Part shown: in pieces, positions 41,463-44,199 of the stretch
Layout: the number at the start of each line of letters is the position of its first letter
Numbering within the stretch: the first letter of the stretch is position 1
Assembly: GCA_021829835.1 (NCBI GenBank)
Contig: JAKBPE010000002.1
Coordinates: 21,498 to 85,497, forward strand
Length of the DNA: 64,000 nt
DNA from: a bacterium
GTDB lineage: Archaea; Micrarchaeota; Micrarchaeia; Micrarchaeales; CABMGC01
Direction: 5' to 3'
Program-made: the position numbers and the translations under genes
The notes under the pieces: generated by a model
What the model was told of the DNA's origin: nothing
What the model saw: the letters and a program-made list of their open reading frames with translations, nothing else
Database searches by the model: none

Positions 41463-42131
41463 TATGCAATTTACGATAATGGATCGATCCAAATTAAACT
41501 GGTGCAATATCAGCCATCCTATGATTTTTAAGGCCCTATCTCTGGTATTTTCGATTCCCAAATAATTTCCTACCTTCAGGTATAAAAGGTATAAAAAATA
41601 TAGAAGCTATGCCAAATAATACCATTGCCCACATCGTATCTGTAAGGCTAATTCTCTCAAATATCAGAATTGACATTACTGCTATTCCTGTGGCTCCGCC
41701 TATCGTGTTGCCGAGTCCCCAAACTATTCCATGAGCTGTTGTAGTTATTTTGTTCGGTATTATCTGGTTTACATAACCCAGCAAAACCGGAAATCCCGTA
41801 AACGCCAGAAAAACAAAAGAGGCATAAGATACAATCAGAAATAATACATTTGATCCCGAGAGCATGAAAGCGATAAAGGTGAGGGTTGAAAATACTGTAG
41901 TTATCGCTATTGTAAGCTTGCCGCCATATCTATCAGTAAGCCGCCCAAATAACGGTTGCCCGAGGATAGCTGTTACAAAGCTTATAGTAAGTATATAGCC
42001 AACTGTAATCTCAGAACCAACTCTGGTCAAAAGATATTCTGATAGAATGATTCGCCCTGCAAACCCATCATTTTCAATGGTGGGTTAGGGGCGTAAGAAG
42101 GTATATAAGAATTAAAAACAAAACAGGAAGC

Positions 42132-43397
42132 ATGGAAACAATGCGTGCCTACAAGTTCAGGGTATATCCTGACACTAAGAGGCAGAAAGCAATAGACGAC
42201 GCTATTTCCATATCTCAAAGGCTTTACAACAAACTCCTTGAGAAGACGATAGAAGCACACAAATCAAATTCCAATTCAAAAATATCGCAGAGAACAATAA
42301 ACCAATTCCTCAATGAAATAATAAAGGAGGATAAAGAATATCTGCAACTCTACGCACATGCCAGAGTAGACATCCGCAATAGGCTTTTGAAGACCTACCA
42401 GAACTTCTTCAGGAGATGCCAGCAGAAGAAGTCAGGTGCAAACATAAAGGCAGGATTTCCACGCTTCAAATCAAAGGACAAATTCAATTCTATAACGCAC
42501 ATAGAAAACAACGGTTCGTTCAGGATAGAAAAGGGAAGGCTGAGAATATCTAAAATAGGAACTATGAAGATAGAACAGCACAGAAATATAACAGGGAACG
42601 TAAAGGCGATGACGATAAAGAGGGAAGGTAGGGAATACTATGTAATCTTCACAGCAGAGCGGATAATAAATCGACCAGAGGTAAAAGACACGAATCTAGT
42701 AGGCATAGACATGGGGTTAAACAATTTTATTGCACTTTCAAACGGAGAAACAATCCAGAAACCAAAGTTCTTCAAAAAGAGAGAGAAAAGAATCGCAAGA
42801 TGGCAAAGAATAGTTGCAAGAAGGCATAAAAGCTCAAAGAGAAGAAACAAAGCAAAATCCAGGCTTCGAGAGGAATGGAAAGTAACAACCAATCAATCTA
42901 ACGACTTTATGCATAAACTATCAGACAAGTTGGTGCATGGCGGATTCACCTCATTCGCAGTAGAGGAGTTGCATATAGAAAACATGCTGAAAAACCATCG
43001 TCTTGCACAGTCAATACAGAACGCTTCATGGAACAAATTTATCCAAATGCTTTCATACAAGGCTGAAAGTGCTGGTATGAAAGTAATAAAAGTAGATGCA
43101 AGGAATACCTCAAAGGAATGCAGTAATTGTGGCAACATTCAAGAAATGCCACTATCCGTGAGGGAATACAACTGCAAATGCGGTATGCAGTTGGACAGGG
43201 ATATAAACGCATCAATAAATATACTCAAAAGAGCTTTGAACTCTACGAGTTCAAATTTTGACTGCAATGCAGTCAAAGCTACCCTCGGACAGAGGGGAAG
43301 TCACGCTCAGGGAGAGAATGTAAGACCTCAACAGGAGGCAGTCCTCAAGGAACTGAGAACATACCCTGCAAACGCAGGGGAAGCCAACGACCTTTAG
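42132..43397 (+). CDS. tnpB: TnpB (IS605 OrfB family RNA-guided endonuclease)
   Basis: 421 aa. RuvC-I is VGIDMGLNNF, RuvC-II is FAVEEL, the zinc ribbon is CSNCGN...CKCG, and RuvC-III is LDRDINASINI. All catalytic residues appear intact. Confidence 0.9.
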   Translation: METMRAYKFRVYPDTKRQKAIDDAISISQRLYNKLLEKTIEAHKSNSNSKISQRTINQFLNEIIKEDKEYLQLYAHARVDIRNRLLKTYQNFFRRCQQKKSGANIKAGFPRFKSKDKFNSITHIENNGSFRIEKGRLRISKIGTMKIEQHRNITGNVKAMTIKREGREYYVIFTAERIINRPEVKDTNLVGIDMGLNNFIALSNGETIQKPKFFKKREKRIARWQRIVARRHKSSKRRNKAKSRLREEWKVTTNQSNDFMHKLSDKLVHGGFTSFAVEELHIENMLKNHRLAQSIQNASWNKFIQMLSYKAESAGMKVIKVDARNTSKECSNCGNIQEMPLSVREYNCKCGMQLDRDINASINILKRALNSTSSNFDCNAVKATLGQRGSHAQGENVRPQQEAVLKELRTYPANAGEANDL

Positions 43398-43413
43398 TCG
43401 TTGGAGGATGTCA
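43250..43413 (+). ncRNA. Candidate omega (right-end) RNA scaffold of TnpB
   Basis: The 3' end of tnpB plus the right end carries two stable hairpins: CCCTGC-AAAC-GCAGGG and CCAACGAC-CTTTA-GTCGTTGG. This position is expected from established TnpB biology. The 5' limit is not determined. Confidence 0.4.
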
Positions 43414-44199
43414 CATGTATGTAGTAGTGCCTATCAAAAACATTGCTCTGACGAAAACAAGCAGAGTCAACAAGGTTAATATTGGCTTGTACTTTCCAGT
43501 AGAAATTTTGAGATTGGATTTTCTTTTAGTTTCCTTTATTTTTTTATTCCATTTTTTCATTGAAGCTAGTCCAAAAAATATAATGGCCCCTGTAAGTATG
43601 GCATATATGCCTAATATTGCCAGGGCGTAAGATACACCTACAAAGAGTATCAAGGGAATCAGAACTATAGGTAGTAATGACCTTCCCATACTGCCAAAAG
43701 ATCCGTTTATGCCCATCATAAGAGATGATCTGTCAGAATATGCCTCTTCAAGAACAGATGCTCCAAGTGGATGGTAAAACGCTTGGCCCACTCCTAAGAA
43801 TATCACAGCAAAACCCATTATGGGGATCACATATCTGCTAAATTCAAAAGAGAAGGAGAACAGGATCATCGATATCCCGAGTATTACTATCCCAAGCGCA
43901 ATCAGCATTGGATAGCGTCTTGTTTTATCAGCAAATTTTCCTATCGGTGTGCTAAGAAACCCGCTTATTATATTGTAAGCTATCGCCATTGCGCCCAACA
44001 ATGCAAGTCCTAATCCAAATCTTTGTTGTAGTATATTATCAATATAGAAAACAATAAAGTAGTAAAATCGTTGGTAGAATGCCCAAGTGAGGTAAAAATC
44101 AATGCCTTTAGCCTATCTTTCTTAATTGCCTCCATATTAGATGCCTATATTGGTAATTATGTTATTCAGGCTTAAAAAGGTAGTTTTACATCACTGTTC

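Follow-up and report, generated by a model that had tools for sequence, protein, structure and literature searches.

For the ends of insertion sequences of the IS200/IS605 family, the mechanistic paradigm is IS608 of Helicobacter pylori, whose precise excision restores the site. Here we consider a stretch of 64,000 nucleotides, hereafter the window, from a Micrarchaeota genome (a DPANN archaeon; GenBank assembly GCA_021829835.1, contig JAKBPE010000002.1, positions 21,498 to 85,497; in our numbering, G000:C6:21498-85497). The assembly, G000, comprises 0.99 Mb in 38 contigs and is 89% complete. It contains an archaeal 16S gene, and the nearest public relatives are metagenome-assembled genomes with the label Candidatus Micrarchaeota. 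We conclude with high confidence that positions 42045-43415 of the window constitute a non-autonomous, TnpB-only IS200/IS605-family insertion sequence of the IS1341 group, which splits a gene of the major facilitator superfamily (MFS). Similarly to IS608, this element has subterminal hairpins without inverted repeats and is inserted 3' of a short fixed motif, with no target duplication; IS608, however, encodes the transposase TnpA, whereas here a transposase would have to act in trans.

In ISDra2 of Deinococcus radiodurans (PMC8612924, PMC10097598), the catalytic residues of TnpB are D191, E278 and D361, the target-adjacent motif (TAM) is TTGAT, and the zinc finger is formed by C331, C334, C351 and C354 (PMC10097598). 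The Micrarchaeota element resembles ISDra2 in the full-length homology of TnpB and its RuvC D/E/D triad, in an RNA scaffold extending over the tnpB 3' end and the right end, in the guide being the right flank (here predicted), and in a 5-nt TAM which is at the same time the target site, is similar in sequence (TGATA here, TTGAT in ISDra2) and is not duplicated. The differences are that ISDra2 has its own tnpA, while this element has none, that the host here is an archaeon, and that the second zinc knuckle is CxC here and CxxC in ISDra2. The RNA scaffold described below has no Rfam family; its likeness to that of ISDra2 is one of architecture.

Among archaeal systems, the IS605-type TnpB7 of Sulfolobus islandicus leaves its native site uncleaved, since its end motif does not constitute a TAM (PMC11043419; bioRxiv 10.1101/2023.03.06.531077). 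The present element shares with it an archaeal host, and with the IS1341-group elements the TnpB-only content (PMC11043419); the right-end RNA (reRNA) of S. islandicus TnpB7 ends with UUCAC before the guide, and the RNA described here with GUCAC(A), hence ...UCAC is common to both. On the other hand, the hosts belong to Thermoproteota and to DPANN Micrarchaeota, respectively, the TAMs are TTTAA and TGATA, and the Micrarchaeota system is known from its sequence. The sense overlapping transcripts (sotRNAs) that Halobacterium salinarum produces from its IS1341-type tnpB genes (PMC4615843) are likewise sense, structured non-coding RNAs in the tnpB 3' end, but they were detected as transcripts, whereas the evidence for the RNA considered here is covariation.

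A full-text literature search yielded no paper on TnpB elements in Micrarchaeota, the terms co-occurring incidentally in two papers. The element represents a well-known transposon family in a clean but unremarkable form: we observed every testable defining feature of an IS1341-type IS200/IS605 element, and among the features of the TnpB protein it is the spacing of the second zinc knuckle that deviates. Its meaning is largely limited to annotation, and the known mechanism is unchanged. What the locus provides is a TnpB-only element of Micrarchaeota resolved to the base, together with the empty site, the TAM, both ends, the predicted guide, and a covariation-supported omega-RNA scaffold outside the Rfam families. 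This could be used for the annotation of DPANN genomes, where such elements break assemblies and inactivate genes. It is also one more natural combination of TnpB, RNA and TAM for the mining of compact genome editors, and the shortened zinc knuckle amounts to a minor natural experiment on the TNB domain.

The empty site and the boundaries of the element

Three minus-strand open reading frames (ORFs) in the window, 44135..44010, 44001..43411 and 42030..41536, are remnants of an MFS gene, and both large pieces match Pfam MFS_1. The first-pass annotation, made from the window sequence, had interpreted the larger pieces as halves of one gene split by the element, and comparison with orthologues demonstrates a precise insertion into a single gene. 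In a protein search covering 40 relatives, uninterrupted MFS orthologues were found as single frames of 410-460 aa in four of them, collinear over residues 4-408. The best orthologue (locus L034 in the same-genus genome G003; 411 aa, uninterrupted) is 85% identical at the amino acid level over residues 4-408 and is flanked by the same two genes as the gene in the window, which encode a sulfatase and a GT87-like membrane protein, one at either side.

The nucleotide alignment (blastn) matched window positions 41300-42044 to L034 positions 1266-2003, and 43415-44400 to 2003-2998. The empty site in the orthologue reads ...AAGATATTCCGATA|TATATGTGGTAGTGCC, and the occupied site in the window, ...AAGATATTCTGATA|[1,371 bp]|TGTATGTAGTAGTGCC. 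Thus, according to both blastn and the alignment with the empty site, the inserted DNA is 1,371 bp long, and the target is not duplicated. Joining position 42044 to 43416 produces an open frame of 401 aa, while joins shifted by one base in either direction do not. The features of the interrupted gene and of the element's ends are as follows.

41536-42044, minus strand: C-terminal part of the MFS gene; matches Pfam MFS_1, collinear with L034 up to 42044
42040-42044, plus strand: target or TAM, TGATA, host sequence directly before the left end; found at this place in 14 of 14 copies
42045-43415, plus strand: insertion sequence of the IS200/IS605 family, TnpB-only (IS1341 type), 1,371 bp; delimited by blastn against the empty site and by the boundaries of other copies
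42053-42093, plus strand: imperfect hairpin of the left end; DNA fold -13 kcal/mol, z -4.67, kept in other copies
42102-42108, plus strand: TATA-like box TATATAA in the left end, its centre about 27 nt before the tnpB ATG; read from the sequence, kept in the copies on contigs C5, C25 and C29
43416-44001, minus strand: middle part of the MFS gene; matches Pfam MFS_1, collinear with L034
44010-44135, minus strand: 5' end of the MFS gene, 41 codons, out of frame through a 1-nt deletion at 44016^44017; from the DNA alignment with the orthologue

In the C-terminal part, coding resumes at 42044, the listed ORF 42030..41536 beginning at an internal TTG. The N-terminal half had been reported to stop at 43411, and indeed the TGA stop of the ORF 44001..43411 (positions 43411-43413) is situated inside the right end of the element, 5 nt past the junction. 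A frameshift near the 5' end of the gene had also been suspected. It is explained by the deletion at 44016^44017, where the window has CC-AAA and the orthologue, whose protein reads ...IIYYNKDFGLGLA..., has CCGAAA; because of this deletion the first 41 codons are out of frame. As the site is outside any long homopolymer run, the deletion is probably real. Since the gene carries this second, independent lesion in addition to the insertion, we consider it a pseudogene.

When the ends of the copies were aligned, the similarity began at TGATA(A/G)AATGATTCGCC and ended at GGAGG..GTCACA, with unrelated flanks beyond; the right end closes with GTCAC(A) in all copies. Aligning the locus to an orthologue had been suggested as the way to the target motif, and it led to TGATA at 42040-42044. 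In all 14 copies whose left junction can be read, counting both the copies in this genome and those in public relatives, the same pentamer stands on the 5' side of the left end, and the base preceding it is variable. In the window TGATA belongs to the MFS gene, hence it is the target or TAM and not a part of the element; the orthologue has CGATA at the matching place.

The boundary between the TAM and the element is ambiguous by 1 nt, as one A may be assigned to either side, and the alternative coordinates are 42044..43414. The base following GTCAC is subfamily-specific, being A in the subfamily of the window element and T in a distant subfamily, hence GTCACA is favoured as the true end and 42045-43415 as the element. 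For the same reason we disfavour the alternative in which the TAM is TGAT and the element begins at 42044, although the 1-nt ambiguity stays.

Both ends contain subterminal hairpins, and terminal inverted repeats are absent, as is characteristic of the IS200/IS605 family. An imperfect hairpin on the left and two perfect ones on the right had been noticed earlier, and all of them were confirmed by folding, which in both ends was far better than that of shuffled sequences. The inner stem of the left-end hairpin is 8 bp long (CCCATCAT/ATGGTGGG, with the loop TTTCA). The two right-end hairpins, 43364-43379 and 43384-43404 (single-stranded DNA fold, z -5.8), are kept in other copies, and the TAG stop codon of tnpB lies within the loop of the latter. 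The terminal stem-loop of the right end, CCAACGAC-CTTTA-GTCGTTGG, has the same shape as the inner stem-loop of the left end, CCCATCAT-TTTCA-ATGGTGGG, which would be expected if a single TnpA recognises both.

It had further been claimed that the two ends share one sequence. The 10-mer CCCTGCAAAC does occur in the window only at 42055 and 43364, that is, once in each end; but most other copies have CCCCGCAAAC in the left end, hence the motif common to the family is reduced to CCCYGCAAA.

The right-end RNA and the predicted guide

The features of the right end that concern the RNA are the following.

43232-43278, plus strand: in-frame insertion of 45 nt, comprising two perfect 9-bp hairpins (43235-43255 and 43257-43277); confined to the copies in the window and on C24; fold -15.3 kcal/mol, z -4.8
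43277-43415, plus strand: conserved structured RNA module, the core of an omega-RNA (reRNA) scaffold, 139 nt; covariance model R1, 168 bits, RNA fold z -5.2
43416-43431, plus strand: predicted omega-RNA guide (UGUAUGUAGUAGUGCC), MFS sequence directly 3' of the right end; by analogy with the architecture of ISDra2 and S. islandicus TnpB (PMC8612924, PMC11043419)

The module extends over the final 40 codons of tnpB as well as the right end; both right-end hairpins (43364-43379 and 43384-43404) and the conserved end GGAGGATGTCACA are part of it. The right end had been proposed as a candidate omega RNA, and the conserved, covarying structure that we observe agrees with this proposal. In an alignment not fitted to any structure (MAFFT, the last 235 nt of 26 copies), compensatory changes are seen in one stem (CCCTC/GAGGG, GGGAG/CTCCC and GGGCA/TGCCC in different copies) and in the terminal hairpin (CCAACGAC/GTCGTTGG, CCTCGG/CCGAGG and CCCCTA/TAGGGG), and RNAalifold applied to the plain MAFFT alignment found 12 pairs with double, that is, compensatory, changes.

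As in the plain MAFFT alignments four divergent rows were off by one base, so that the terminal hairpin was mis-registered, we built a covariance model, R1, of 139 positions from a hand-written structure of six helices and re-aligned the sequences. A search with R1 of the loci collected from the genome and its relatives produced 38 matches, the best one being that in the window (168 bits, 43277-43415). In the R1 alignment of 37 distinct sequences, 27 of the 35 pairs had changed on both sides and 92.9% of the cells were standard pairs, compared with 35-47% when the partners were slid by 1-3 columns, and none of 500 shuffles reached the observed values; as the alignment underlying these counts was fitted to the structure and leans towards it, they are somewhat inflated, although the effect is already visible in the unfitted alignment. 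The amino acids of the TnpB tail differ where the overlapping RNA stems covary, therefore the constraint there is on the RNA.

A scan of positions 40000-46000 against Rfam 15 at E <= 1 yielded no family matching inside the element. One further helix, a long-range pairing of GACAU (the codons of DRD) with AUGUC near the 3' end, was considered and dropped, as it showed almost no compensatory change. The 45-nt insertion is placed between RuvC-III and the scaffold core, its position being ambiguous by 2 nt. It was also considered as a separate mini-repeat, but this was ruled out, as no further copies of it occur in the genome or the relatives.

The start of the guide had been expected around 43411-43416, and the start predicted here, 43416, is the upper bound of this range. 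The first 12 bases of the predicted guide occur once in the assembly, in the element's own right flank, beside GTCACA.

The mechanism proposed for this element is modelled on ISDra2 and S. islandicus TnpB7 (PMC8612924, PMC10097598, PMC11043419, bioRxiv 10.1101/2023.03.14.532601). As in these systems, tnpB would be transcribed from the TATA box in the left end; the box at 42102-42108 is likely an archaeal promoter, and the tnpB mRNA is then likely leaderless. The 3' part of the transcript would give rise to the omega-RNA, whose scaffold would include 43277-43415 and perhaps some upstream sequence, and whose guide would be the flanking MFS sequence from 43416 onwards. The complex of TnpB with this RNA would cut an element-free allele, where TGATA is followed by TGTATGTAGTAGTGCC, and homologous repair of the cut empty allele from the occupied copy would lead to the element being kept. 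The occupied site itself should be immune, because there the match to the guide is preceded by GTCACA (TCACA in place of the five bases of the TAM).

TnpB, its second zinc knuckle and the transposase

The reading frame and the knuckle within it are positioned as follows.

42132-43397, plus strand: tnpB, 421 aa; RuvC residues D193, E278 and D357, zinc-finger cysteines C330, C333, C348 and C350; from Pfam, the ISDra2 alignment and motif positions
43173-43181, plus strand: second zinc knuckle, TGC AAA TGC, that is, C-K-C, one codon short of the CxxC of about 35 relatives and of copies C18 and C30

The protein matches three Pfam families above their cut-offs: PF01385 OrfB_IS605 (72 bits), PF07282 Cas12f1-like_TNB (89 bits) and PF12323 HTH_OrfB_IS605 (27 bits). 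Its residues 5-380 align with ISDra2 TnpB (structures 8H1J, 8EXA and 8BF8; E 3.7e-48), and in this alignment the triad D193, E278 and D357 corresponds to D191, E278 and D361 of ISDra2. The RuvC triad and the zinc ribbon had both been described as intact. For the triad this is correct, all three residues being kept, whereas the zinc finger retains its four cysteines in an atypical spacing: the first knuckle is C330-S-N-C333, but the second one, C348-K-C350, is not CxxC. The shortened form is confined to the window, C24 and C5 copies.

Several points weigh against the interpretation of the element given above, in addition to the 1-nt ambiguity of its boundary and the inflated pair counts mentioned above. 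The C-K-C knuckle may weaken or abolish the nuclease. The ratio of non-synonymous to synonymous substitution rates (dN/dS) between tnpB copies is low, 0.12-0.17, but it does not settle the function of the nuclease: the copies are mosaic, and in the block containing the deletion the window and C5 copies share 97-99% identity, hence the ratio is silent on selection since the knuckle deletion. We therefore rejected the value of 0.13 for the window and C5 as proof of selection on the C-K-C protein. From the same 97-99% identity it follows that little time has elapsed since the block with the deletion spread. Finally, a cognate tnpA was not found in the 89%-complete genome, where the sole tnpA is associated with different, CCCCC-stem hairpins.

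These points bear on the most serious alternative, which accepts the element as described but holds that its TnpB is nuclease-defective owing to the knuckle deletion, so that the element is a passenger moved by TnpA in trans and homogenised by recombination, without RNA-guided homing. We consider it possible, though clearly the less probable reading. It is in agreement with the restriction of C-K-C to three loci, all other relatives having CxxC, with the use of all four cysteines of two CxxC knuckles by the ISDra2 zinc finger, and with the near identity of the deletion-bearing block between copies, which makes the deletion recent. At the same time, two of the three loci with C-K-C are full-length open copies, neither the RuvC triad nor any of the four cysteines is lost, and the RNA module of the window is intact and has the top score among all matches; besides, the CxC spacing could still bind zinc.

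As regards the transposase, no tnpA or other Y1 transposase gene is present in the element, which has a single long ORF, or elsewhere in the window. This had been stated for the window before; the genome-wide search adds one Y1_Tnp match, the only one in the assembly, on another contig (C1), a lone and apparently intact IS200-like tnpA of 167 aa. This gene (G000:C1:3412-3762, minus strand; locus L016, 1453-1956) has the HUH-type motif HVH and no adjacent tnpB. It was considered as the cognate transposase and rejected as unsupported, since the hairpins flanking it have CCCCC stems and are unlike the ends of the element.

Movement of the element would thus need a Y1 transposase acting in trans. 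Y1 transposases are found in 23 of the 41 genomes searched, this one included, and genomes of the same genus hold full IS605-type elements with both tnpA and tnpB, with related TnpB proteins and similar end hairpins. One of them (L087, G007:C61) comprises tnpA, a small ORF and then a tnpB 61% identical to that of the window, together with the 5' half of the RNA module; in another one (L085, G001:C24) tnpA is accompanied by a divergent tnpB, and the end hairpins are of the CCCAC...GTGGG-AGGATGTCA type. Trans-mobilisation by a same-genus TnpA of this kind seems plausible.

Copies in the genome and the remaining explanations

A search for further copies in the genome had been recommended, and it revealed copies with the same ends. 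The element DNA used as a query produced 15 DNA matches in the assembly. There is a full-length copy on contig C5, with 88% nucleotide identity to the element in the window, and partial copies are situated at the ends of contigs C18, C24, C25, C29 and C30; the copies on these six contigs share the ends and have different flanks. More distant tnpB paralogues, 61-64% identical at the amino acid level, are found on C6 and C30. The RNA model detected 11 strong right-end modules in the genome, at least five of which belong to the family of the window element.

The similarity between copies is distributed unevenly, some blocks of 100 nt being 81-88% identical and the adjacent ones 97-100% identical. 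Thus, the window and C5 copies are 82-88% identical in alignment columns 300-900 and 97-99% identical in columns 900-1100, while the window and C18 copies are 94-100% identical in columns 400-800 and 81-85% identical in columns 800-1000. This block-wise mosaicism is taken to indicate recombination or gene conversion among the copies.

Outside the window, the assembly also contains two 'stumps' of a third TnpB family, 232-244 bp in length (G000:C3:42793-42955 and G000:C13:13642-13804), in which nothing is left but the last ~25 codons of tnpB, the GTCAC end and the RNA scaffold. The two share 97% identity, and about 12 nt separate their 5' break points. The stump on C3 is fused in frame with the N-terminal part of another MFS-like ORF.

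One may imagine that the C-K-C TnpB with its two-hairpin omega-RNA is still an active nuclease, that the mosaicism is a footprint of TnpB-triggered homing, and that the stumps supply guides in trans. Taken jointly, these three proposals are speculative and, in our opinion, rather improbable.

The abundance of copies at contig ends bears on a second alternative, namely, that the insertion is unreal and was created by the assembler joining the repeat between unrelated pieces. The genome is indeed a metagenome-assembled one in 38 contigs, and the repeat evidently troubles the assembler. However, both flanks derive from a single gene and in the orthologue adjoin each other to the base, the junctions coincide exactly with the TAM and with the conserved GTCACA end of the family, and the neighbouring gene order is the same as in G003, a match which a chimeric join would not reproduce. 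We thus regard an artefact as very improbable.

Exapted, nuclease-dead relatives of TnpB are known in bacteria, and together with the atypical zinc knuckle they could suggest that this TnpB has been domesticated as an RNA-guided regulator recruited by the host or as another exapted protein. We hold this to be even less likely than an artefact, as the RuvC triad and both transposon ends are intact, the TAM is conserved, the element is present in multiple copies with different flanks, the orthologous site in a same-genus genome lacks it, and its position is inside a gene that it disrupts and not next to a conserved target.

The last alternative, in which the two MFS-like ORFs are separate genes or products of an old tandem duplication with an intergenic element between them, may draw on the two homologous halves of MFS proteins and on the fact that both pieces match the N-terminal half of the Pfam model, but it is refuted by the single collinear orthologues in four relatives and by the DNA alignment continuous across the junction, and hardly deserves any credence.

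The same MFS gene family is associated with a TnpB element in one more genome of the same order. In locus L037 (G032:C1:719355-723548), a related element encoding a TnpB of 422 aa occupies approximately positions 96-1408, and its match to the RNA model, 1232-1408, stops about 90 nt upstream of where the MFS orthologue begins. Here, too, a TnpB element has inserted beside a member of this MFS gene family, in a second event independent of that in the window.

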